Notes: generated by a model from the sequence alone, not told the origin. A stretch of DNA of 62,962 nucleotides from an uncultured bacterium (GCA_903994795.1 CAJEYI010000001.1:1-62962); one strand, 5' to 3'. Positions 2,709-56,592 are shown, numbered from the stretch's first letter. Program-made: numbers and translations.

Positions 2709-3920
2709 ATGAAGTTTCAAGTCGTACTTAAAAAGGCAGATGAATCAGAGGAGACTCGAACTATGGATGCCGCGTCGCGGTTTGAAATCTACGAATCGGT
2801 TCAAAAAGAAGGGGCTAGTGTTGTCTCGATCACCGAGGGACATAGTTCAGGAATGGCCTGGATGGATATCACAATTGGGAGTGGTGTAAAAACCCTTGAA
2901 CGCATTACCTTTACCAAAAACCTTTCTGCGATGTTAAATGCTGGGCTTAGTCTTTCTCGTGCCTTAAATGTTATCGAGCGACAGTCAGGAAATAAAGTAC
3001 TTAAGAAAATTGTTGCCGACTTACAAGAACGAATCAAATCAGGGATGTCATTTCATGAAGCATTGGCAATACATGCAAATATTTTCCCAAAACTTTTCAT
3101 TGCAATGACCAAGGCGGGGGAAGAAGGGGGGACATTGTCTGAAACACTTAAGACAGTGGCGAAACAAATGGACAGATCAGAGACACTCAACAAGAAAGTG
3201 AAGGGCGCAATGATTTATCCGATGATTATATTGTTTGCCATTTTGGTGATAGGAATCTTAATGTTGATATTTGTCGTGCCTACACTTGCTTCAACGTTTG
3301 GTTCTCTTGGCGCGAAGCTACCACTCTCCACCAGAATTATTCTCGGAGCTTCGAATTTCACAACGCATAATGCAGGAATCGTTCTTGGAGGTCTTGCAGT
3401 ACTCATAGTGGGCGGGGCGCTATTTTTTAGAACGAAAAGAGGTAAGGCACTCGTATTGTTTTCTTCGTTACGCTTGCCAGTTATTGGGGAGCTCGTAAAA
3501 GAAACAATGAGTGCACGAACAGCACGAACGCTTTCATCACTGCTGTCCTCAGGAGTCGAAATGCTAAATGCGCTTTCGATTACTGGAGAAGTTGTGGGAG
3601 ATAATATCTTTGGGAAAGTAATTGCAGAAGCAGAAGCAGGTGTACAAAAAGGTGAGCCGCTTTCAAAGTCATTTATTGAACATCCAAAGCTCTACCCGAT
3701 TTTCTTTAGTGACATGGTCAGCGTTGGAGAAGAGACAGGAAAAGTTTCAGATATGTTGGGTCAGATTGCTGACTACTATGAGACTGACGTTGAAGATCAA
3801 ACAAAAGATCTTTCTACAATAATTGAACCGCTACTCATGCTCTTTATAGGAGCGTTCGTTGGAGTCTTTGCCATCTCGATGATTGCACCTATCTACTCAC
3901 TTTCTTCATCAATTAAGTAG
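2709..3920 (+). CDS. pilC: type IV pilus platform protein, PilC/GspF family
   Basis: Duplicated T2SS-F architecture, polytopic membrane protein, directly follows pilB. Confidence 0.9.
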   Translation: MKFQVVLKKADESEETRTMDAASRFEIYESVQKEGASVVSITEGHSSGMAWMDITIGSGVKTLERITFTKNLSAMLNAGLSLSRALNVIERQSGNKVLKKIVADLQERIKSGMSFHEALAIHANIFPKLFIAMTKAGEEGGTLSETLKTVAKQMDRSETLNKKVKGAMIYPMIILFAILVIGILMLIFVVPTLASTFGSLGAKLPLSTRIILGASNFTTHNAGIVLGGLAVLIVGGALFFRTKRGKALVLFSSLRLPVIGELVKETMSARTARTLSSLLSSGVEMLNALSITGEVVGDNIFGKVIAEAEAGVQKGEPLSKSFIEHPKLYPIFFSDMVSVGEETGKVSDMLGQIADYYETDVEDQTKDLSTIIEPLLMLFIGAFVGVFAISMIAPIYSLSSSIK

Positions 3921-3942
3921 GTGGCGCGGTATTATAGAAGTA

Positions 3943-5664
3943 ATGGTTTCTTTGCAAAGCCCACGAGGCATGACGTTGATAGATGTGGTGATTGGCACCG
4001 CGCTCGTTGTCATTATATTTTCAGGATTGTTTGCGACGTTACTTGCATCGATAAAGTTGTCTACTTATGTAAAACAGGAAGCGGCTGCAGACGCTGTTGC
4101 AAATAACCAAATGGAATTCATACGATCACTTTCATACGATCAAATCGGAACTGTAGGGGGTATTCCGAGTGGTGTTGTTCAGCCAACCAGCACCATTACT
4201 CAAGACGGTACGCAGTACGGTGTCACTACATTTATTGAGTACTATGATGATCCGGCAGATGGAACGAATGCAAATGATACAAATGGCATTACGACTGACT
4301 ACAAGAAGGTAAAGATTACAGTGAATTATCAAACCCAAAATGGATTTAAGCAACAGATACTTGCTTCAATGTTTGCGCCACAAGGGGTTGAGACAACTAC
4401 GGGTGGTGGTACGCTCCAAATACTCACTGTAGATTCGGCTGGGGCACCACTCGCAAATGCAGTTGTGCACATTGTAAATTCAGCAATTTCTCCCGCTGTT
4501 GATCTTACTGCGTACTCAGACCGCTATGGCTCAGTTAATTTGCCAGGTGCAGTCGCGTCTTCACAGTATCAAGTAACGGTCTCTAGATATTCGACTTATT
4601 CATCTGCGCGTACATATGCTCGTGATTCAACAAACCAAAACCCAACCCCTGGCTATCTGACCGTGGCAGCGAATCATACTACTACTGGAACATTTGCGAT
4701 TGATTTATTAGCAAATCTAATTGTGAACACGTTCTCGCCAATGGCCACGAGCACCTTTAGTGATACCTTTTCCGACGCGTCAAAAATTAGCTCAAACTCA
4801 GATACTGTAGTTGGTTCTGGTGCAGTCACTCTTTCAAGAATCTCTGGGAATTATGTCTCGAGCGGCAGTGCGGTCACTACCTCTATATCTCCCGCATATC
4901 TTGCTTCGTGGGGTTCATTAGCAGCAACACTTGCGTTGCCTGCTGGGACAGATGCTTCAATACAAATTCTAGATCAGGCAGGAACACCATTGCCCGAAGG
5001 TGTGCTTTCCGGCAATGGTGCAGGGTTTAGGATATTTCCTGTAGATTTGTCCGGTGTTTCAACAACAACATATCCGTCACTCATGCTTTCAGTAAATATG
5101 TCTTCATCTGATCCTACGGTTACACCATCTCTGACTGCATGGAGTTTGCCGGCGCGTGTGGGCCCAATCCCATTACCAAATGTTGGGTTTACCCTGACAG
5201 GAGCGAAGACTGTGGGGTCAACAGGAACCGGTGCGCCGATTTACAAAACAACCGTAACCACAACTACTTCATCAGCAGGTACAAAAACACTGCCTCTCGA
5301 ATGGGATTCTTATGCACTGTCTGTCCCCGGGTATGATGTGGTGGATGCTTGTGCGGCACCTCCGTATGCACTTACCGCTGGTTCAACAAACAGCGCATCA
5401 CTTATACTCGACACACACACGACTAATTCGTTGCTTGTGACTGTAACTGATTCATCTGGAGTGGTTGTGCCGAATGCAACAGTCACACTCAGTCGATCTG
5501 GGTATTCTGCTACGGTTCAAACCTCTGCGTGTGGTACTGCATACTTTGGAAACATAGGGTCTGCAATAGATTACGGAGTCACAATTTCAAAAACAGGATA
5601 CACTTCAGTTACATCGAATGGAGTATCTGTCCATGGTGAGCAATTTTATGAAGAGTCATTTTAA
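3943..5664 (+). CDS. large pilin-like protein (573 aa) with a prepilin-type N-terminus
   Basis: N-terminus SPRG/MTLIDVVIGTALVVIIFSGLF resembles a class III signal plus hydrophobic helix. Long Ser/Thr-rich extracellular part. Start chosen after the pilC stop. Confidence 0.6.
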   Translation: MVSLQSPRGMTLIDVVIGTALVVIIFSGLFATLLASIKLSTYVKQEAAADAVANNQMEFIRSLSYDQIGTVGGIPSGVVQPTSTITQDGTQYGVTTFIEYYDDPADGTNANDTNGITTDYKKVKITVNYQTQNGFKQQILASMFAPQGVETTTGGGTLQILTVDSAGAPLANAVVHIVNSAISPAVDLTAYSDRYGSVNLPGAVASSQYQVTVSRYSTYSSARTYARDSTNQNPTPGYLTVAANHTTTGTFAIDLLANLIVNTFSPMATSTFSDTFSDASKISSNSDTVVGSGAVTLSRISGNYVSSGSAVTTSISPAYLASWGSLAATLALPAGTDASIQILDQAGTPLPEGVLSGNGAGFRIFPVDLSGVSTTTYPSLMLSVNMSSSDPTVTPSLTAWSLPARVGPIPLPNVGFTLTGAKTVGSTGTGAPIYKTTVTTTTSSAGTKTLPLEWDSYALSVPGYDVVDACAAPPYALTAGSTNSASLILDTHTTNSLLVTVTDSSGVVVPNATVTLSRSGYSATVQTSACGTAYFGNIGSAIDYGVTISKTGYTSVTSNGVSVHGEQFYEESF

Positions 5665-10043: not shown

Positions 10044-10140
10044 ATAGTCTAAGTTGACGAGCAATTCCAGAGGAGTATTATTTCAGTATGTCTGTAGGCG
10101 AAAGCCTTGTTCAGCCTCTAGTATTAAGCTGATAAGCAGA

Positions 10141-10183
10141 CCAAATGAACTGAGCCCTCTTTATGAGGGCTCAGTTCATTTGG
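10141..10183. terminator. bidirectional terminator hairpin
   Basis: 17-19-bp perfect inverted repeat CCAAATGAACTGAGCCC/GGGCTCAGTTCATTTGG between convergent genes. Confidence 0.7.
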
Positions 10184-10571
10184 TATTTAATTCCATTATG
10201 CTCCAAAACGTTATCCTTCCTTTTCCAAGCTGTCGTAGTACCAACCTTACTTTTTTCTCTGGATTTTCACTTATCTTTGCATCAATGCCCCAGTATCTAG
10301 TGTTTTTAGTTGCTGCATATCTATGTGTTATGGGTAGGTTTGCCTTCAGGATTGGCATAATATTTGAAACCAATCTCAATCTGCGAAACTGCTCCGCAGG
10401 CTGTCTTTTGTGGCCGAGTCCATTATAAACAATATGATGAAATCCTTTAGCATTAAAAAATATTTTTGCTCGCACTGATTCGCACCAAATAGGATTTATA
10501 AACGCATTATATTGCTTACGAGCCGATTCTTTGAGTGCGCCTAATGATTTTGTTTCTTGTTCTGCATCCAT
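10176..10571 (-). CDS. hypothetical protein (131 aa)
   Basis: Only plausible ORF in the pgk-HIT gap. No motif recognised. Confidence 0.4.
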   Translation of the reverse strand: MDAEQETKSLGALKESARKQYNAFINPIWCESVRAKIFFNAKGFHHIVYNGLGHKRQPAEQFRRLRLVSNIMPILKANLPITHRYAATKNTRYWGIDAKISENPEKKVRLVLRQLGKGRITFWSIMELNTK

Positions 10572-16999: not shown

Positions 17000-17025
17000 A
17001 ATGAAAGGTTGGAAGTAGAGAGCAT

Positions 17026-17057
17026 AGAAAAAGCCGAGACATGTCTCGGCTTTTTCT
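17026..17057. terminator. bidirectional terminator
   Basis: 14-bp stem AGAAAAAGCCGAGA/TCTCGGCTTTTTCT between convergent genes. Confidence 0.75.
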
Positions 17058-17073
17058 ATTTTCTTTTTCTCCT

Positions 17074-22437: not shown

Positions 22438-22475
22438 AAAGCAAAAAGACTTCCGAATGGAAGTCTTTTTGCTTT
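22438..22475 (+). terminator. intrinsic terminator after rpsG
   Basis: 17-bp stem AAAGCAAAAAGACTTCC/GGAAGTCTTTTTGCTTT. Confidence 0.8.
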
Positions 22476-25913: not shown

Positions 25914-25948
25914 AAGCAAAAATCCCATTTTAAATGGGATTTTTGCTT
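25914..25948 (+). terminator. intrinsic terminator after fusA
   Basis: 16-bp stem AAGCAAAAATCCCATT/AATGGGATTTTTGCTT. Confidence 0.75.
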
Positions 25949-28660: not shown

Positions 28661-28680
28661 GCTTGTAGTAATACAATATT

Positions 28681-28710
28681 AGAAAAACCGCCTATTTGGG
28701 CGGTTTTTCT
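28681..28710 (+). terminator. intrinsic terminator after rpsJ
   Basis: AGAAAAACCGCC/GGCGGTTTTTCT stem. Confidence 0.8.
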
Positions 28711-28832
28711 AATATATTTATAAAACTTATGCACCTCTCGGGATTCAGACGTATGAAAGGCGTGCTATAAAGAGGGTGGGATGTACCCGAATTACAAATT
28801 GACTTATTCATCAAATTTATAAAAACTTCTTT

Positions 28833-32755: not shown

Positions 32756-32781
32756 TAGGCCTCTGGTAAAAAGAAGTTCGC

Positions 32782-32838
32782 AAAAGAATACGAAAAATGG
32801 CCCTCTAAATTCTGACGGGCCATTTTTCGTATTCTTTT
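32782..32838 (+). repeat. conserved-loop hairpin, copy 1 (22-bp stem, loop TCTAAATTCTGAC)
   Basis: Perfect inverted repeat AAAAGAATACGAAAAATGGCCC/GGGCCATTTTTCGTATTCTTTT, 26 nt after the rplB stop. Confidence 0.85.
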
Positions 32839-32949
32839 TGCCGTACCGAAAAGTTATCCACAGGCTTTATTTTCTCACTATTTTATTTTCATATTTATTT
32901 CAGCTCGCTATGCTACATTCTTGCCATACCAATTTAACGAAATACGAAT

Positions 32950-33255
32950 ATGGCACGAAAAAACCAAAGCACTCATACAACAGAAGTATTCATTAATAAC
33001 AATCATGCAGGCTACTCAGAACACGAGCATCTTTTGGAGCATGTTCATTTCCTAGAAGAACGAACTACCGAACTAGAAGAGAAAGTAGACTTCTTTCAGA
33101 CGATTTTCCAGGATTTACTAGATGATGAAGACGACGAGGATGAGGATACAGAAGATGAGGTAGGAGAAGATGAATACGAAGATGAAGAAGACCTCTTCGA
33201 AAATGGCCTGTGTGGCCATTCGTGTTGCTGTGTGTGGAGTCGTGTGGTGAGTTAG
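32950..33255 (+). CDS. hypothetical acidic protein with a Cys-rich C-terminus
   Basis: DDEDDEDEDTEDE run and a CGHSCCCVW tail. Inserted between rplB and rpsS. Confidence 0.4.
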   Translation: MARKNQSTHTTEVFINNNHAGYSEHEHLLEHVHFLEERTTELEEKVDFFQTIFQDLLDDEDDEDEDTEDEVGEDEYEDEEDLFENGLCGHSCCCVWSRVVS

Positions 33256-33297
33256 GGGTGTTTATAACCAAAAAATCACCATGATAAACTTACTACT

Positions 33298-33780
33298 ATG
33301 ACGGCGGACACAGAGCTAATTATTACTGAACTCACAAAAGTATTTGATTCTAAAATCGATCAATTAGGTAGTGAAATCAATGGAAGGTTCGAGCTGATGG
33401 ACACAGCTTTTGCTGATTTAGCATCTGCGATGCAGTATGGATTTGAGAAGGTTTACGATAGATTCGACGAGGTCGATGAGAGATTCGAGAATGTTGAGGG
33501 TAGATTAGGTAGAATCGAAGGCAGATCGGATAACTTTGAGAGCAGAATGAATAGAATCGATGAAAGTATCGAGTATTTGAAAGTAGAGATGAGAGACGTA
33601 AAGACGAGAGTCATTCACCTGGAGTCCTCTATGGAAGAAGTGCAGGAAAGTCTTGCAAATCTTGAAAACGCTGAAGAAAAAGACGCAAAAGCTACTATTA
33701 ATCACGAAACACGTATACAGAAGCTCGAAAAGGTAAATAAAATCAAACCGAAACCAGTGGCGCACTTATTGAATATATGA
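33298..33780 (+). CDS. heptad-repeat coiled-coil protein
   Basis: Six consecutive heptads of the form (D/E)xR(F/L/M)xx(V/I). Resembles the 51204-51608 product. Confidence 0.55.
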   Translation: MTADTELIITELTKVFDSKIDQLGSEINGRFELMDTAFADLASAMQYGFEKVYDRFDEVDERFENVEGRLGRIEGRSDNFESRMNRIDESIEYLKVEMRDVKTRVIHLESSMEEVQESLANLENAEEKDAKATINHETRIQKLEKVNKIKPKPVAHLLNI

Positions 33781-33820
33781 GCAGGAGAGGGCACAAGAAC
33801 CCTCATAAAGCCGTCATAAT

Positions 33821-33870
33821 TTGACAGTCTGCCTCATTTCGTATAGATTTTATCTATCCCGCGTCGCGGG
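33821..33870 (+). promoter_or_regulatory. candidate promoter plus leader hairpin of rpsS
   Basis: TTGACA (33821-33826) with TAGATT/TATAGA as -10. CCCGCG-T-CGCGGG hairpin (33858-33870), then CTTTTACTTCTC and the ATG. Confidence 0.45.
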
Positions 33871-33882
33871 CTTTTACTTCTC

Positions 33883-37619: not shown

Positions 37620-37639
37620 GTTTAAGTAAAGAAGTAGTA

Positions 37640-37667
37640 GTAAAAGCGCCCGAAAGGGCGCTTTTAC
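37640..37667 (+). terminator. intrinsic terminator after rplE
   Basis: GTAAAAGCGCCC-GAAA-GGGCGCTTTTAC. Confidence 0.8.
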
Positions 37668-37731
37668 TTTATAGATCAAACTTGGGGATTTGCTACGTAG
37701 CCATTGCTTGGTGGGATGCTAGTATTTACAT

Positions 37732-38958
37732 ATGAAAATTCAACCGCTCAAAGTATTTGTTTCTATGCCATTTACAGGTAAGACTTGGGAGAACCTTACT
37801 CAAGAACGTAAAGACCTGCATGTGCTCGCAGAGAAATACGGCATGGAAATGGTAGAGCAATTTATTGGATATCAAGGAAAGGAAGATTTCGAAAGTAAAT
37901 CTTATAATCCTTCATTTATTTTAGCGAAAGATAAGAATTTTATAAAAGAAGCAGATGTAGTAATTGCTGACTTCTCGTCACCTTCAGTTGGAACAGATTG
38001 TGAGGTAACTATAGCGAAAGAGTTATTTGATAAGAAGATTTATGGTGTGGTGCCACAGGAAAAGCGTCGACACATGTGGCTCATTTTCTATTGTGATTAC
38101 TTCTTTGATACGGTTGAGGATGCTTTTAAGCAAATTCAGAAAGACTTTGAAGGTAAGCACCAATTAGCACGTCTAGATAAGCGTCAGTATGACCCAATTG
38201 CAATTGAGTACAGACTAGTTGAAGAAACTCCTTCACAGAAAAGTATCTATGATCCAGCAGTAATCGAGTTTGTTCAGAAAGAAGCCGTAGGGAAAGATGT
38301 CATCGTTCTCCATGACGGTAGCGGATATCGAGCACGTCTCGCAAAGAAAAACGGCGCAGCAAAGGTAATCGGTATTGATATATCATTTAAGCAAACGCAA
38401 ATTGCTAAAGGTGAAGAGTTACGCGAGCCCCTTGGTATTGAATATCTAGTGCTTGACCCATACTCCCGAGACTTTGATACGGCAGTTCCACAAGAGCTAA
38501 TTTCATCTGCAGATGTGGTACTTGGAGCTTTTCTGCTCGATCACGCAATGGCATTGGATGAATTGGAATTAGTCGTTAAACACACAGCAATGCTCCTAAA
38601 GTCAGGAGGAAAGTTCTTTGGACTCTCTGATCACCCAGATGCACACATACCCACGGAGCCTAAATATGGAGTAGTTGTGAATCTTGATGAAGAAATTGAG
38701 AATACAGGTGATGGTACTCCGCGCCGCATATCAATATTTCAAAGTGTACCTGGGGGACAGATGGAAGTGCTACATTTCCATAATTTCCTTTGGACCAAGG
38801 AAACAGTTACACGTATTCTAGCTGATGCAGGATTTAAGGATATTGAATTCCACGTACCTGAGGTATCAAAAGAAGGTATTGAAGCAAGTGAGCCAGAATT
38901 CTGGGACGCGTATAAAGAGCATCCTACAACTATAGCTTTTACAGCAGTAAAGAATTAA
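37732..38958 (+). CDS. fusion protein: nucleoside 2-deoxyribosyltransferase-like domain plus class I SAM methyltransferase domain
   Basis: N-terminus: VFVSMPF ... ADVVIADFSSPSVGTDCEVTIA, an NDT/Rcl-like fold with a Glu. C-terminus: VLHDGSGYRA, VIGIDIS and LLKSGGKF, which are MTase motifs I, II and post-II. TGcTAGTAT lies 6 nt before the ATG. Confidence 0.6.
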   Translation: MKIQPLKVFVSMPFTGKTWENLTQERKDLHVLAEKYGMEMVEQFIGYQGKEDFESKSYNPSFILAKDKNFIKEADVVIADFSSPSVGTDCEVTIAKELFDKKIYGVVPQEKRRHMWLIFYCDYFFDTVEDAFKQIQKDFEGKHQLARLDKRQYDPIAIEYRLVEETPSQKSIYDPAVIEFVQKEAVGKDVIVLHDGSGYRARLAKKNGAAKVIGIDISFKQTQIAKGEELREPLGIEYLVLDPYSRDFDTAVPQELISSADVVLGAFLLDHAMALDELELVVKHTAMLLKSGGKFFGLSDHPDAHIPTEPKYGVVVNLDEEIENTGDGTPRRISIFQSVPGGQMEVLHFHNFLWTKETVTRILADAGFKDIEFHVPEVSKEGIEASEPEFWDAYKEHPTTIAFTAVKN

Positions 38959-38963
38959 TAACT

Positions 38964-39003
38964 AAAATGACAACGCCCCCGGTCTCATTTGAGACGCGGG
39001 GGC
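38964..39003 (-). terminator. terminator of GC-rich cassette A
   Basis: GCCCCCG(C)GTCTCA/TGAGACCGGGGGC stem, followed by TTGTCATTTT on the minus strand. Confidence 0.6.
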
Positions 39004-39028
39004 TTGAGGCCGAGTGACCGAGTGAAGC

Positions 39029-39280
39029 TCACTCGGTCGGGGGATTTGGCGCTGAAACGAGGCGCATGGCTTCGGGACATCCCGCAACGCCGATGACGCC
39101 GAAGATGATGGCTATCCAGCCGAAAAGGATCAGCTGGCCGGAGGTGTTGTCGAGTAGCACGGGCTGATGGTGAAAAATCTGCCACTGAATCAGGCCGTGG
39201 TCGAGAAGCTTCCCGACGTTCTCGGCAATTGCGCCGCCGGCGACTCCGATGAGGGAACCGGTAAGGGTCTTGGACATCAT
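39029..39280 (-). CDS. small Gly-rich two-TM protein (83 aa), GC-rich cassette A
   Basis: GGGAGA SD 6 nt before the ATG. 62 of 83 codons end in G/C. Hydrophobic segments GSLIGVAGGAIA and LILFGWIAIIFGVIGVAG. Confidence 0.5.
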   Translation of the reverse strand: MMSKTLTGSLIGVAGGAIAENVGKLLDHGLIQWQIFHHQPVLLDNTSGQLILFGWIAIIFGVIGVAGCPEAMRLVSAPNPPTE

Positions 39281-39324
39281 AGCTTGTCTCCCGGCTAGTA
39301 TCGCCTAATTGCGAACACCTAGCT

Positions 39325-39362
39325 CTAAGTATTATATATATCATAAATATTAATATTGTCAA
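39325..39362 (-). promoter_or_regulatory. consensus-like promoter of cassette A
   Basis: TTGACA (39362-39357), then an AT-rich spacer with TGaTATATA as -10. Confidence 0.55.
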
Positions 39363-39641
39363 ATCTTTTGCAGGTAACACGTGCCACCTTAAAAAGAATC
39401 ACTTATTTAAGATATGCAGAAGTAAAAATACAAATGCTTAATAAATTCTGTAATTTGACTTTAATATAGCTTTCAAACACTTAGTAAATTGGTGAATTCG
39501 CGAGGAGCTACGCAGTGCTATTTTTAGGGCTCTCGGAGCGCCACGGCGCGAGAGCGAGCTGATTTTCTAGCAAGAAAATACAGCGTACCCAAAAATGGCG
39601 TAGGTGCGGGCGAGCTACTTTCACCACGCCACTCTCGAAGT

Positions 39642-39670
39642 TTGACAGCGTAAACGCTTACTGATACATT
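39642..39670 (+). promoter_or_regulatory. candidate promoter restarting the spc operon at rpsN
   Basis: TTGACA, 17 nt, TACATT. Confidence 0.5.
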
Positions 39671-39699
39671 ACTTGAAGCTCCTCGGAGCGCTTTTTCGT

Positions 39700-42469: not shown

Positions 42470-43747
42470 ATGATTACAAAGGCACTACACAAACTAAGAC
42501 TCGTCTTCACTGACTCGGCTATCCGCGCACGAATGCTTTTCCTTTTGGGAGCACTCGTCGTCTTCCGTTTCCTTGCTGCTATTCCAATTCCAGGAGTTGA
42601 TAAGAATGCACTTGCTTCATTCTTCCAGAACAATCAGTTCTTCGGACTCCTCAACGTCTTCTCTGGAGGTGGTTTTTCACGACTTTCAATTGTGATGCTT
42701 GGTGTTGGCCCATACATTACATCTTCTATCATCATGCAGCTTGCAACATTTGTATTCCCTCAGCTAAAGGAAATGCAGAACGAAGAGGGTGAAGCTGGAC
42801 GCACAAAGTTCATCATGTGGAGCCGAATGATTACTATTCCAATTGCAATTCTGCAGGGCGTAGCATTCCTTTCACTCCTTGAGTCACAAGGAATTATCGC
42901 AGGACCACTATCGTCACTCGCATTTGCTGCAAACGTCTTCCTCGTTGCGGGTGGATCAGTACTCCTTATGTGGATTGGTGAGCTTATTACTGAGTTTGGT
43001 ATCGGAAACGGTGTTTCACTCATCATCTTCGCAGGTATCGTTGCTCGACTTCCAGAAGGCATTTCTCAGACACTCTTCACGGCAACAACTGCTCAGATCC
43101 CTGCATACCTAGGATTCCTCGTTGTGGCAATCGCTGTCATCTACGCAGTGGTTGTGGTATCTGACGCTGAGCGATCAATTCCAATTGCATACGCACGCGC
43201 AAACCGAGCAGCAGCGCTTCAGAATGGTGGTGAGACATACCTCCCAATTCGTATTCTTCAGACTGGAGTTATTCCAATCATCTTCGCGCTTTCTCTACTC
43301 CTTCTCCCTCAGATGGCATTTACAGGCCTTACTGCAATCGGTATAAAGGGCCTCGCAGGAGCTTCAACATGGTACGCAGCATTCTCTGCAAACCTTCTTG
43401 AGTACGGTATCGTCTACTTCCTTCTTGTTATTCTATTCACCTATTTCTACACAACAGTTATCTTCGAACCTACACGTATGGCTGATAATCTCCAGAAATC
43501 AGGAGCATTCATTCCAGGTGTTCGTCCAGGAAAAGAGACTGAGAAGTACATCAGTGCAGTTGTGAACCGAATCACGCTTCCAGGAGCAGTCTTCCTCGGT
43601 TTCGTGGCGGTCATCCCATTCATTATTCAGGGTGTTACTGGTATCAGCGCTATTCTTGTGGGAGGTACAGCACTGTTGATTGCGGTGCAGGTGGTTCTCG
43701 ACCTTGTGCGAAAGGTGGATGCGCAGGCATCTTTGCGCGAATATTAG
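42470..43747 (+). CDS. secY: preprotein translocase subunit SecY
   Basis: 10-TM pattern, with the GVGPYITSSIIMQL and ITEFGIGNGVSLIIF motifs. Confidence 0.97.
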   Translation: MITKALHKLRLVFTDSAIRARMLFLLGALVVFRFLAAIPIPGVDKNALASFFQNNQFFGLLNVFSGGGFSRLSIVMLGVGPYITSSIIMQLATFVFPQLKEMQNEEGEAGRTKFIMWSRMITIPIAILQGVAFLSLLESQGIIAGPLSSLAFAANVFLVAGGSVLLMWIGELITEFGIGNGVSLIIFAGIVARLPEGISQTLFTATTAQIPAYLGFLVVAIAVIYAVVVVSDAERSIPIAYARANRAAALQNGGETYLPIRILQTGVIPIIFALSLLLLPQMAFTGLTAIGIKGLAGASTWYAAFSANLLEYGIVYFLLVILFTYFYTTVIFEPTRMADNLQKSGAFIPGVRPGKETEKYISAVVNRITLPGAVFLGFVAVIPFIIQGVTGISAILVGGTALLIAVQVVLDLVRKVDAQASLREY

Positions 43748-43773
43748 AATGCTTTAAAGATATAGAAGGGTAA

Positions 43774-43828
43774 GTAAAAAGCCTGAACGATTTCTCTAAA
43801 TTCTGACGAAATCATTCAGGCTTTTTAC
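43774..43828 (+). repeat. conserved-loop hairpin, copy 2 (21-bp stem with one C.A mismatch, loop TCTAAATTCTGAC)
   Basis: GTAAAAAGCCTGAACGATTTC/GAAATCATTCAGGCTTTTTAC, 27 nt after the secY stop. Confidence 0.85.
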
Positions 43829-43850
43829 GTTGCCTCACAGTTTACTTTTA

Positions 43851-44411
43851 TTACGCTTCAAGCCAGTTTTTGTATGAGTTTGTAATCATTTGAGCGACCT
43901 CTACGAGGGGGTATTTTGAGGTATCGATAACTAAGTCGAAAGGTGTTAAATCAAGCGCGTCTACATTATAGAGATTCATGTAACGTTTCTGCTCGCTGGT
44001 TCGGCGGTCAATTATATTGTTGTAAACTGCGTCTACAGAATCTCCACTCTCACTTACACGACCAGATTCTTGAATTTGTTTGTAAATTCGTTCAGCTGCG
44101 ATATGTGGGTCTAGGGAAAGATAGACTTTAAAGGAGTTCGGCATCCAGTGATATGCCATCCGAGAGTCGATAAGTAAATCAGATTCGTTCGCCATGTCTT
44201 GCAATTTCTTGTCTACCGCATGATCTATTTCGTGCTCAAGCTCTGCTTGCTGATTAATTTCTGTAATTGATACGCCTCGTTCTGCCGCAATTGATCTAAA
44301 GAGGTCTCCTGATGAGAAATGTCGGTATTCAAGGGTGCTTGCTACTAATTTCCCTGTGGAAGACTTTCCGCTTCCGAGTGATCCGGCAATTGTAATGATT
44401 TTTGTTCTCAT
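43851..44411 (-). CDS. cytidylate kinase-like (archaeal-type Cmk / AAA_18) P-loop kinase
   Basis: The P-loop GSLGSGKSS and the overall pattern resemble the Cytidylate_kin2 family. Antisense to the operon. Confidence 0.65.
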   Translation of the reverse strand: MRTKIITIAGSLGSGKSSTGKLVASTLEYRHFSSGDLFRSIAAERGVSITEINQQAELEHEIDHAVDKKLQDMANESDLLIDSRMAYHWMPNSFKVYLSLDPHIAAERIYKQIQESGRVSESGDSVDAVYNNIIDRRTSEQKRYMNLYNVDALDLTPFDLVIDTSKYPLVEVAQMITNSYKNWLEA

Positions 44412-49816: not shown

Positions 49817-51217
49817 ATGTCACTACGTCTCACTTGCTACGGCGCTGCCGAAACTGTAACTGGTTCTAATTTCTTAGTGGAAGGTCCCAAAGGAAAGATT
49901 CTTATAGATTGTGGTATTGAGCAGGGAAGGGACTTTGTGGAGTCAGAAATGTATAAGCCGTTTGCGTATGATGTTCCTTCAATAGACGCACTCGTCATAA
50001 CGCATGCACACCTCGACCACATTGGTCGCGCACCGAAACTCATAAATGAAGGCTTTAAGGGTCGAGTGTTCACAACAGCTCCAACACGAGACCTCACCGA
50101 AATAATGCTTCGTGATACCGTGAAGATATTGGCGGAGACTGCTAGAGAGCACGGCCTCCCACTTCTCTATACAGATGACGACGTAACCAAGTTCCTTGAG
50201 AAGATTGAGGTCATTGCATATCACGAAGAAAAAGAAGTTGCTCCAGGGCTCTCAATCTTCTTGCGTCAGACCGGTCACATACTTGGTTCTGCAAGCGTGC
50301 GCATAAAAGATTTATCTGACGATACATCCCTCGCTCTCACTGGAGACATTGGAAATATGCCATCGCCATATCTTCCTGACTGGGAAGCGATCACTGATGC
50401 AGATGCGGTGCTTATGGAAAGTGTGTATGGAGACAGGGTAAATGCGGATAAGGAGGATCGTGTCGCGCTTTTGCGCGACACGATCAAGAAGTCCGTCGCT
50501 CGCGGCGGCGTCATTCTCATACCAGCATTCTCTATTGAGCGCACTCAGCTCATGCTCTACGAATTTTCAAAGTTAATGGAAGAAGGTGAGATTCCTCATG
50601 TGCCGGTGTATCTTGACTCACCACTCGCCATTAAAGCTACAGAAGTATATGAGAAGTGGGGGAGCGAATTCTTCAAGTCTGCTGCAGAAGAAGAGTTGCA
50701 CCGACGACATGATCTATTTAAATTCCCATTTCTCATGGAGACCCCTTCACGCCAGGATTCTGAGGAAATTGCAAAAGCACCTAATCCTAAAATCATTATG
50801 GCTGGCGCTGGCATGTCGCATGGTGGCCGTATCGGACATTGGGAGCAAAAATACCTTCCAGACCCAACGACCACACTTATCATTGTGGGCTATCAGGCTC
50901 CAGGAAGCCCTGGACGCTTGCTTCAGGATGGTGCGCCCCATGTACGTCTCGGAGGTGTAGATGTGCGTGTACGAGCCAAAATAGAGACTTTTGTGGGGTG
51001 GTCAGCACACGCAGACAGAGACGGATTACTTGATTTTGCAAAAGCGGCACTCCCAGAGTCAGGAGGACGCACGAAGAACTTCTTCGTGGCACTCGGCGAG
51101 CCGTCCTCGGCTCGCTTCCTCGCGCAGCGAATTCATGATTATCTAGGCACGAATGCCATAGTGCCCACACAGGGAGAAAGCTTTGAGATCACAAAAGATA
51201 AGATTAAGCGACTATAA
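49817..51217 (+). CDS. MBL-fold beta-CASP ribonuclease-like hydrolase
   Basis: ITHAHLDHIG, the beta-CASP pattern, and a C-terminal SAHAD. Confidence 0.8.
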   Translation: MSLRLTCYGAAETVTGSNFLVEGPKGKILIDCGIEQGRDFVESEMYKPFAYDVPSIDALVITHAHLDHIGRAPKLINEGFKGRVFTTAPTRDLTEIMLRDTVKILAETAREHGLPLLYTDDDVTKFLEKIEVIAYHEEKEVAPGLSIFLRQTGHILGSASVRIKDLSDDTSLALTGDIGNMPSPYLPDWEAITDADAVLMESVYGDRVNADKEDRVALLRDTIKKSVARGGVILIPAFSIERTQLMLYEFSKLMEEGEIPHVPVYLDSPLAIKATEVYEKWGSEFFKSAAEEELHRRHDLFKFPFLMETPSRQDSEEIAKAPNPKIIMAGAGMSHGGRIGHWEQKYLPDPTTTLIIVGYQAPGSPGRLLQDGAPHVRLGGVDVRVRAKIETFVGWSAHADRDGLLDFAKAALPESGGRTKNFFVALGEPSSARFLAQRIHDYLGTNAIVPTQGESFEITKDKIKRL

Positions 51218-51743: not shown

Positions 51744-51810
51744 GGGCGAAAGCATAAAAGAAAAAATCCCGTCAGAATTTAGAGGGATTTTTTCTTTTAT
51801 GCTTTCGCCC
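51744..51810 (-). repeat. conserved-loop hairpin, copy 3 (27-bp perfect stem, loop reads TCTAAATTCTGAC on the minus strand)
   Basis: GGGCGAAAGCATAAAAGAAAAAATCCC/GGGATTTTTTCTTTTATGCTTTCGCCC, 14 nt after the rplT stop. Confidence 0.85.
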
Positions 51811-56116: not shown

Positions 56117-56170
56117 GCCCACCTCCACCAGATAAACAAAAACCACCTATCGGTGGCCATGTTTATATCT

Positions 56171-56592
56171 GGTGGAGGTGGGGGTAGTTGAAACCCCGTC
56201 CGAATCCGGCTTTGAGAGCGAGTCTACGACGCGTAGTTCATATTAGTGTTTCAGAATGAAGGTAAAAACAGGAACGAAACCCTTCACACCTACGCCCGTT
56301 TTTTAAGAGACTTATGTGGGCACATGAATCTTCCGATCCCATAGAGAATTCCGCCCAATCACCCAGCTATGAGAACCTGGAATGATGAACGTCGCTCAGC
56401 GAGGCGAGCCGAAGCTCAAGCCTGCTTACGCGAACGCAAAGTCGCTCGGAGTAAAATACCTCGAAACGATGCTCTTTGCGCTTGCAACTGTAGTGTTAGC
56501 AAGTATTTGTGCTTGTGGGATTTGAGTGTCCAGCAAGCTTGCACTGCGTCGCACGTCTCTCAAAGAGCAGACCGTCAAAACCGGTCACCCCC
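56171..56592 (-). ncRNA. ssrA: tmRNA (SsrA)
   Basis: 5' GGGGGUGACCGGUUUUGACGG and 3' GGAUUCGGACGGGGUUUCAACUACCCCCACCUCCACCA. The acceptor stem has a G3:U70 pair. Lies directly downstream of smpB. Confidence 0.9.

Follow-up and report, generated by a model that had tools for sequence, protein, structure and literature searches.

Three genes of the translation and secretion machinery of an uncultured bacterium, rplB, secY, and rplT, are each followed by a long hairpin, and the three hairpins present an identical 13-nt loop on stems of unrelated sequence. The question that these loci raise is what keeps such a loop constant. The hairpins lie in a complete contig of 62,962 nucleotides (GCA_903994795.1, CAJEYI010000001.1:1-62962), which is hereafter referred to as the window. 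The window organism is a metagenome-assembled genome of the Patescibacteria (Paceibacteria/Parcubacteria). Its RplT and the genes neighboring it are identical in GCA_903994865.1 and in other lake assemblies, and relatives of its SecY are labeled Patescibacteria, Pacebacteria, or Paceibacterota.

The first hairpin (copy 1; 32782-32838, plus strand) begins 26 nt past the stop codon of rplB (ribosomal protein L2; 31913-32755, plus strand), a gene that is 89-93% identical to genes annotated Ribosomal_L2 at two related loci (L128 and L129). It comprises a 22-bp perfect stem (AAAAGAATACGAAAAATGGCCC / GGGCCATTTTTCGTATTCTTTT) and a 13-nt loop, TCTAAATTCTGAC (32804-32816, plus strand). Copy 2 (43774-43828, plus strand) comprises a 21-bp stem with one C.A mismatch and the same 13-nt loop (43795-43807, plus strand). 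It begins 26 nt past the stop of secY (42470-43747, plus strand; PF00344) and lies between convergent genes, secY on the plus strand and a cytidylate-kinase-like gene (43851-44411) on the minus strand. Copy 3 (51744-51810, minus strand) has a 27-bp perfect stem and carries its 13-nt loop at 51771-51783 (minus strand), 14 nt past the stop of rplT (ribosomal protein L20; 51825-52175, minus strand; PF00453), the last gene of infC-rpmI-rplT. All three loops read TCTAAATTCTGAC in the sense of the upstream gene. A first-pass annotation of the window had described these hairpins, and its coordinates and sequences, its stem lengths (by inverted-repeat analysis), and the words shared among copies (a 19-mer common to copies 1 and 3 and a 15-mer common to all three) were reproduced here; its spacing of 14-27 nt past the stop is 14-26 nt by our measurement.

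A search of both strands of the window recovered exactly three matches to TCTAAATTCTGAC, all of them hairpin loops, where base composition predicts ~0.002 per 63 kb by chance on both strands. Three further hits with two mismatches form no hairpin, and their number is within chance. Copies 1-3 are among the four longest inverted repeats of the window, and the stem of copy 2, if extended, reaches 28 bp at 86%. As RNA, copies 1, 2, and 3 fold with energies of -37.7, -34.8, and -47.2 kcal/mol, which correspond to z-scores of -10.8, -9.8, and -11.8 relative to shuffled sequences. RNAfold places two extra pairs within the 13-nt loop (UC/GA) together with a bulged C, such that the effective loop would be 8 nt plus the bulge if those pairs form. 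The clamp of copy 1 reads GGCCC-loop-GGGCC and is followed by ATTTTTCG, that of copy 3 reads ATCCC-loop-GGGAT and is followed by TTTTTCTTTT, and the stem of copy 2 (GCCTGAA...TTCAGGC) is followed by TTTTTAC. Copy 3 was found again in independent assemblies of the window's species, and an assembly or library artefact is ruled out, since copies recur in independent NCBI, ENA, Logan, and JGI assemblies.

The usual gene-end structure, in the window and in every relative examined, comprises an A-run, a G+C clamp, a short loop, the second half of the clamp, and a T-run. Ordinary gene-end hairpins in this lineage have stems of 13-35 bp and loops of 0-7 nt, and some are loop-less perfect palindromes. 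Long perfect palindromes at gene ends occur in the window at 10138-10186, 17024-17059, 22438-22475, 25914-25948, 28676-28715, and 37639-37668, and in relatives at L129 20533-20580, L236 1442-1520, and L242 11319-11378; long stems with loops of 0-4 nt include a loop-less 24-bp stem in L129 and a 28-bp stem with a 4-nt loop in L242. The terminator of the window's own rpmB (17024-17059) is such an ordinary loop-less palindrome, unlike the rpmB site of a relative (L160) described below. At least nine other terminators in the window have short, unrelated loops, as the first-pass annotation had correctly noted. The stems of copies 1-3 are unrelated in sequence, yet they have the generic A-run, G+C clamp, and loop build, and the earlier statement that they share no sequence therefore holds for their sequences and not for their architecture, which is that of all terminators in the genome. 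Since long perfect stems are the rule in the lineage, the stems themselves are ordinary and only the conserved 12-13-nt loop is unusual.

Copies 1-3 possess the stem, the U-tract, and the post-stop position of an intrinsic terminator, and their 13-nt loop is longer than the short loop (typically 3-8 nt) of such terminators. A simple consensus terminator scan did not list them because that scan admits only loops of 3-8 nt. Like intrinsic bidirectional terminators in general, the hairpins follow the order A-run, clamp, loop, clamp, and T-run and lie 0-26 nt past the last gene of an operon. They differ in that a 12-13-nt loop is conserved across genes and species, whereas ordinary loops here are unrelated to one another, and in that their stems, 21-30 bp of pure Watson-Crick pairs, go far beyond what termination needs. 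The claim that these are not plain intrinsic terminators is thus upheld for the conserved loop and not for the long palindromes, which are normal for the lineage.

A constant loop displayed on stems that vary freely is also seen in other species and after other genes. Two related loci (L160 and L171) were retrieved from metagenomes by motif pattern, without gene-class bias. L160 carries the identical 13-mer on a 28-bp stem 13 nt past rpmB (L28), and L171 carries it on a 27-bp stem 6 nt past rplL (L7/L12), both in the sense orientation; L160 is a syntenic relative of the window (81% identity for L28 and 66% for the adjacent M50 protease). Two other loci (L234 and L236) were retrieved by SecY homology, without use of the motif. 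In L234, whose SecY is 91% identical to that of the window, a 29-bp stem after rplB bears a 12-nt loop, TCAAATTCTGAC, which is TCTAAATTCTGAC minus one T. The same 12-nt loop is found in L236 at the tip of a 30-bp stem that follows rplT; this hairpin lies on the opposite strand and is again in the sense orientation relative to its gene. Window copies 1 and 3 occupy the orthologous rplB and rplT sites, respectively, and have different stems. Together with the three window copies, this makes seven intact copies on unrelated stems of 21-30 bp, with a loop module consensus of TC[T]AAATTCTGAC closed by a C-G pair, usually as CCC/GGG.

Diverged versions of the loop were found at four further sites: TCAAATTTTTA after rplB in L236, TCAATACTAAC after rpmB in L239 (the sister of L160; sense), ATTAGAATCTGA after rplL in L242 (the same genome as L128), and TCGATACTGAC after rplB in L129, where the loop is both diverged and flipped to the antisense strand. 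The canonical motif is absent from the 21 kb analyzed of each of L128, L131, and L237, and it seems to have been lost from the genome to which L128 and L242 belong. Because loops have diverged at orthologous sites (L239 relative to L160; L242 relative to L171), the constraint on the loop is not universal. The post-rplB terminator of L128 (654-727) has a 30-nt loop that itself holds a palindrome, TTATCTG-GGAT-CAGATAA. This different insert in an orthologous rplB hairpin suggests that hairpin tips may be hotspots for small insertions.

The 9 kb of the source genome that adjoin the window contain no further copy of TCTAAATTCTGAC, which gives a density of three copies per ~72 kb, all in loops and none in coding DNA. 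When 185,579 species genomes were searched with the 15-mer, at least 119 stretches were returned, with five or fewer complementary flanking bases among the matches listed, and none of 51 viral-contig matches is in a hairpin. A metagenome scan with YYCTCTAAATTCTGACGRR listed 47 matches, 45 of them bare and two in long perfect hairpins (L160 and L171). Across unrelated genomes, viral contigs, and metagenomes, at least ~215 matches to the 15-mer or to YYC...GRR were listed, none in a hairpin. The first-pass annotation had asked whether the 13-mer is always found in hairpin loops and in the sense orientation; this is the case for the intact copies within the clade and not for the matches listed elsewhere, which are bare of hairpins.

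A covariance model, which the first-pass annotation had proposed and which we built from the seven intact copies, scored them at 65-78 bits on the sense strand and 40-45 bits on the antisense strand (copy 1, 77.7 bits on the plus and 45.1 on the minus strand; copy 2, 67.8 bits on the plus strand; copy 3, 72.8 bits on the minus and 40.3 on the plus strand). The four diverged versions scored 49-53 bits, and the model recovered nothing beyond the intact and diverged versions in 257 kb of clade DNA. Rfam searches of the window and seven related loci returned only tmRNA and tRNA, and the use of E-value thresholds for L160 and L171 yielded only weak look-alikes of miRNA precursors, far below the gathering score. 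A literature search retrieved no paper with the 13-mer or with such a feature in Patescibacteria/Candidate Phyla Radiation.

When the seven intact copies were aligned over 20 pairs each, 139 of 140 stem cells were Watson-Crick and none was G-U. Both sides had changed in 18 of the 20 stem pairs, and 12 of 13 loop columns were invariant. Sliding the 3' partner along the alignment reduced pairing to 43-56%. The opinion that this is not a MITE is borne out by these figures: a MITE or REP-type repeat is ruled out, given that the arms are not conserved. REP/BIME, REP-RAYT, Correia, RUP, and SMAG elements are multi-copy extragenic hairpins in which the palindromic arms are conserved. The hairpins described here resemble REP/BIME-type repeats in being multi-copy structures at operon 3' ends with signs of concerted evolution; they differ in that their arms vary and their loop is conserved, and no RAYT-like gene occurs in the annotated regions. 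The possibility raised earlier that the three loci are fragments of a known repeat family with conserved arms likewise found no support, the arms being variable and Rfam giving no match. An integron attC site is also rejected, since conservation is at the tip rather than the base and the gene tables (41.8-62.9 kb of the window plus 9 kb) hold no integrase.

The loop is in the sense orientation relative to the upstream gene in all seven intact copies, and the five distinct loci (rplB, secY, rplT, rpmB, and rplL) all involve translation or secretion genes, statistics for which the number of independent loci is five and in which the loci retrieved by SecY are biased toward ribosomal-protein clusters. 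In both the window and L236, the rplB-side and rplT-side hairpins are on opposite strands of one locus. Cumulative GC skew climbs steadily throughout the window. Together, these observations indicate that the orientation of the loop follows transcription and not replication.

The arms vary even among strains, as a C-to-A arm variant in the GROS21 strains shows. Comparison of L234 and L236, whose SecY proteins are 99% identical (421 of 425 residues), reveals how the arms change. Their hairpins after rplB are 74% identical, whereas the flanks (300 nt on each side) are 83-90% identical, and every substitution and indel in the hairpin is mirrored in the opposite arm. These mirrored changes and the lack of wobble pairs suggest that the arms are kept complementary at the level of DNA and not by selection on RNA alone. 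Hairpin-templated correction, in which the template is switched at quasi-palindromes, is the likely mechanism, and the process is established in E. coli genetics. The 3' half of the L236 rplB loop is now nearly complementary to its 5' half (TCAAA-T-TTTTA), which indicates that the templating process erodes loops as well as maintaining arms. Given such erosion, the presence of one and the same 13-mer at five non-homologous loci, in three species whose proteins have clearly diverged, points to selection on the loop or to its continual re-copying.

Independent origin of the identical 13-mer at five loci is implausible, which implies copying between terminators. Two further observations support such copying: the 12-nt variant occurs at two loci of one lineage and the 13-nt form at three loci of another, and inner clamps are shared by subsets of copies (TGGCCC...GGGCCA in copy 1 and L171; CCGCCC...GGGCGG in L234 and L236). 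Direct repeats between the arms of different copies are limited to the generic A-run and clamp.

The explanation that we favor, tentatively and as a possibility rather than a probability, is that the loop is a sense-strand recognition element, likely acting at the level of RNA, that is carried on intrinsic terminators of translation operons, has been spread by recombination, and is bound by a putative reader. Copies 1-3 would be intrinsic and potentially bidirectional terminators of the type common to the lineage, equipped with a strand-specific module at the tip. RNA polymerase would proceed through the A-rich 5' arm and the loop into the G+C clamp, and the transcript would end through the clamp hairpin and the U-rich 3' arm that follows. 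Messages that end in rplB, secY, and rplT (and, in relatives, rpmB and rplL) would thus finish in a hairpin that displays a common single strand. A putative sequence-specific reader, protein or RNA, would bind this loop and might co-ordinate termination efficiency, 3'-end protection, or decay of messages for the translation machinery. Non-homologous terminators would have acquired the module from one another, probably through short-patch recombination with the A-run and clamp as anchors, and it would then have been retained by selection against the DNA-level process that converts loop into stem.

Several observations are consistent with the recognition-loop explanation. Sense orientation, gene class, and low copy number fit a signal on a few highly expressed mRNAs, and the low copy number is easier to reconcile with a small regulon than with a prolific repeat. 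The divergence of the flipped L129 version and of the three others is what decay would produce once an orientation-dependent function had been lost. The general idea put forward in the first-pass annotation, that a displayed single strand is recognized by its sequence, remains the best one. Conserved 3'-end elements on functionally related mRNAs have precedents in the histone mRNA stem-loop, which is read by SLBP and in which the stem is conserved as well as the loop, and in Bacteroidales-1, a 3'-UTR RNA motif located after rplT. The present hairpins differ from the former in that the stem varies and from the latter in that they have no Rfam match. Other observations fit recognition at the RNA level less well. 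The absence of G-U pairs points to maintenance of the arms at the DNA rather than the RNA level, which counts against the explanation that we favor, and the occurrence of TCAAATTCTGAC at two loci of the L234/L236 lineage has the look of concerted evolution, which is equally typical of a propagated DNA module. A search for a complementary RNA partner of the loop revealed none beyond chance in the window or in tmRNA.

The most serious rival, which we consider unlikely, is that the loop and clamp have no role in RNA and constitute a DNA-level module, either the site of an enzyme that acts on hairpin tips (HUH/Y1, transposase, or recombinase) or a sequence homogenized by gene conversion. Such a module would be written into the centers of pre-existing palindromic terminators and kept uniform by repeated re-copying. 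Some copying process is demanded by the identical 13-mer at five non-homologous loci, and a DNA module would account for the concerted pattern of 12-nt loops at two L234/L236 loci versus 13-nt loops at three window loci and for the inner stems shared by subsets of copies. Decay at orthologous sites (L239, L242, and the rplB site of L236) and one flip (L129) are expected of unselected insertions, and the upkeep of the arms at the DNA level indicates that hairpin extrusion evidently matters here. A conserved loop on variable stems is, moreover, a hallmark of HUH nick sites, and it is what the present hairpins display. In the nick-site hairpins of rolling-circle origins, CRESS-DNA viruses, and geminiviruses, the enzyme recognizes the loop and not the stem; there, too, a single-stranded loop of ~9-13 nt is conserved and stems differ between replicons. 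However, those sites lie at replication origins beside a Rep gene, one per replicon, whereas the sites described here follow chromosomal ribosomal-protein operons, occur several times in a genome, have the orientation of transcription, and have no Rep or HUH gene nearby in the regions scanned.

The gene content and distribution of the copies also weigh against a DNA module. No transposase, Rep, HUH, or integrase gene is present in the gene tables for 41.8-62.9 kb of the window plus 9 kb, and a Pfam scan of 20 window ORFs detected no such domain; a cognate Rep, relaxase, or Y1 transposase was sought among the Pfam-hit genes of the same regions and among the 20 ORFs, and none was found. Copy number is very low, the intact copies (7 of 7) are oriented with transcription rather than replication, all copies follow translation or secretion genes, and the 13-mer is identical across species with strongly diverged proteins. 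On balance, a DNA module has the advantage for the concerted variants and for decay at orthologous sites, and it does worse on orientation, gene class, and copy number.

An improbable alternative is that the loop is a neutral passenger that has no reader, moved by occasional ectopic recombination between look-alike terminators with the help of natural transformation among related populations and tolerated as a spacer that stabilizes long palindromes. The motif hairpins are among the longest stems at each locus (21-30 bp), and the A-run and clamp offer microhomology common to all terminators. A capacity for transformation would be consistent with the type IV pilus parts that the window encodes, whose T2SSE and T2SSF domains were annotated in L232, a locus corresponding to the start of the window, and with a Competence-domain protein in L239; loss or degradation of the motif in several relatives is also in keeping with neutrality. 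Against this, loops erode quickly (those of L234 and L236 differ), yet the 13-mer is identical in three species with protein identities of 66-81%. Long stems with 0-4-nt loops exist, so a spacer is unnecessary, and neutral movement would give neither sense orientation in 7 of 7 copies nor restriction to translation genes.

A DNA-uptake signal in terminators, in the style of Neisseria and Pasteurellaceae, had been suggested by the first-pass annotation and is now very improbable. The idea drew on the type IV pilus genes of the window and gains from the Competence-domain protein of L239, and at 8 of 10 positions TTCTGACGGG agrees with the reverse complement of the Neisseria signal (TTCAGACGGC). 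DUS (Neisseria) and USS (Pasteurellaceae) are also short conserved words at terminator hairpins, in lineages which, like this one, have pilus or competence genes. However, those signals are abundant, at 1000 or more per genome, occur within genes as well, and form terminator stems as paired inverted copies (PMC1852404), whereas the motif here is single, confined to the loop, and in one orientation, at three copies per ~72 kb with none in coding DNA or outside loops and with two hairpin matches listed in the metagenome collection; an uptake signal is therefore ruled out on frequency. A search of the literature on terminator loops in general surfaced only this comparator (PMC1852404).

The remaining candidates were rejected. 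A resemblance of the motif to 16S positions 907-927 failed a shuffle test: in a comparison that used the E. coli rrnH operon, the best match among 16S, 23S, and 5S rRNA was E. coli 16S 909-927 (CTCAAAT..TGACGGG), and this match was equaled or surpassed by 66 of 300 shuffles in the case of the 12-nt form and by 227 of 300 in that of the 13-nt form. Readings of the loop as a K-turn, T-loop, anticodon loop, or promoter hexamer, assessed by eye against consensus rules, do not fit.

The neighborhood of the hairpins has features of its own. The S10-spc cluster is split by inserted genes at 32756-33882, 37620-39672, and 43748-44334 of the window, each insert being bounded by its own terminators and by promoter-like conserved boxes (TTATCCACA...). 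The insert between rplB and rpsS encodes an acidic 101-aa ORF and a 160-aa coiled-coil protein, that between rplE and rpsN a 408-aa methyltransferase/deoxyribosyltransferase-like protein, and that between secY and adk the convergent cytidylate-kinase-like gene. Insert content varies among close relatives, with DUF3298 and guanylate kinase in others. A gene for an RNase J-type beta-CASP ribonuclease (49817-51217) and the coiled-coil gene located after the post-rplT hairpin are convergent, with an overlap of 14 nt, and this neighborhood is kept in all relatives. The first-pass annotation had linked copies 1 and 3 to two similar coiled-coil genes. The two proteins are 24% identical and are generic coiled coils, an uncharacterized 104-aa gene follows rplT in L236, and copy 2, L160, L171, and L234 have no such neighbor; the association is thus one of local synteny.

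Separate structures were observed at RNA genes. The last 13 nt of the tmRNA gene, together with 4 nt of 3' flank, pair with an inverted copy ~30 nt downstream to form a helix of 17-26 bp that encloses a small terminator-like hairpin (window 56118-56182, minus strand; L234 17925-17986; L236 17221-17294). Relatives conserve this helix, which may serve in precursor processing or in termination. In L002, from a strain of the window's species, a hairpin that includes the 3' end of the tmRNA gene (CCCACCTCCAC..., 27-bp stem) is duplicated at 3908-3980 and 4913-4985. The duplicates are ~1 kb apart and surround a 171-aa ORF, and a 257-aa ORF lies just past the second copy. The arrangement has the look of a small island that integrated at the tmRNA 3' end, an insertion that is absent from the window (56118-56182). 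An 87-nt tRNA gene is directly adjoined by a free-standing LAGLIDADG homing-endonuclease gene at L230 17656-18402, ~7 kb past the window on its right side. CPR bacteria usually carry LAGLIDADG genes inside rRNA genes, which is not the case for this gene.

Collectively, our findings indicate that the motif is real and reproducible and that it is apparently an undescribed terminator-associated signal in an understudied phylum, to which we attach a putative function. To our knowledge, almost nothing is known of gene regulation in Patescibacteria (Candidate Phyla Radiation), which have minimal genomes, few recognizable regulators, and no culture-based genetics. If the recognition-loop explanation is correct, the motif would provide a handle on post-transcriptional co-ordination of the synthesis of the ribosome and the secretion machinery through operons that end in rplB, secY, rplT, rpmB, and rplL, and the loop is an exact RNA or single-stranded DNA bait with which to fish out the reader. 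For the annotation of such genomes, terminator predictors limited to 8-nt loops miss sites of this kind. Arms that change faster than their flanks by mirrored events beneath a constant loop make these hairpins a natural system for the study of hairpin-templated mutagenesis and of the stability of long palindromes. A bolder and doubtful version of this explanation is that the loop is a displayed tag for a putative dedicated factor, defining a 3'-end regulon of Paceibacteria translation operons on self-templating palindromes between whose tips the loop is specifically copied. If true, this displayed-loop tag would represent a new class of cis-regulatory element together with a new way in which the terminators of reduced genomes evolve.
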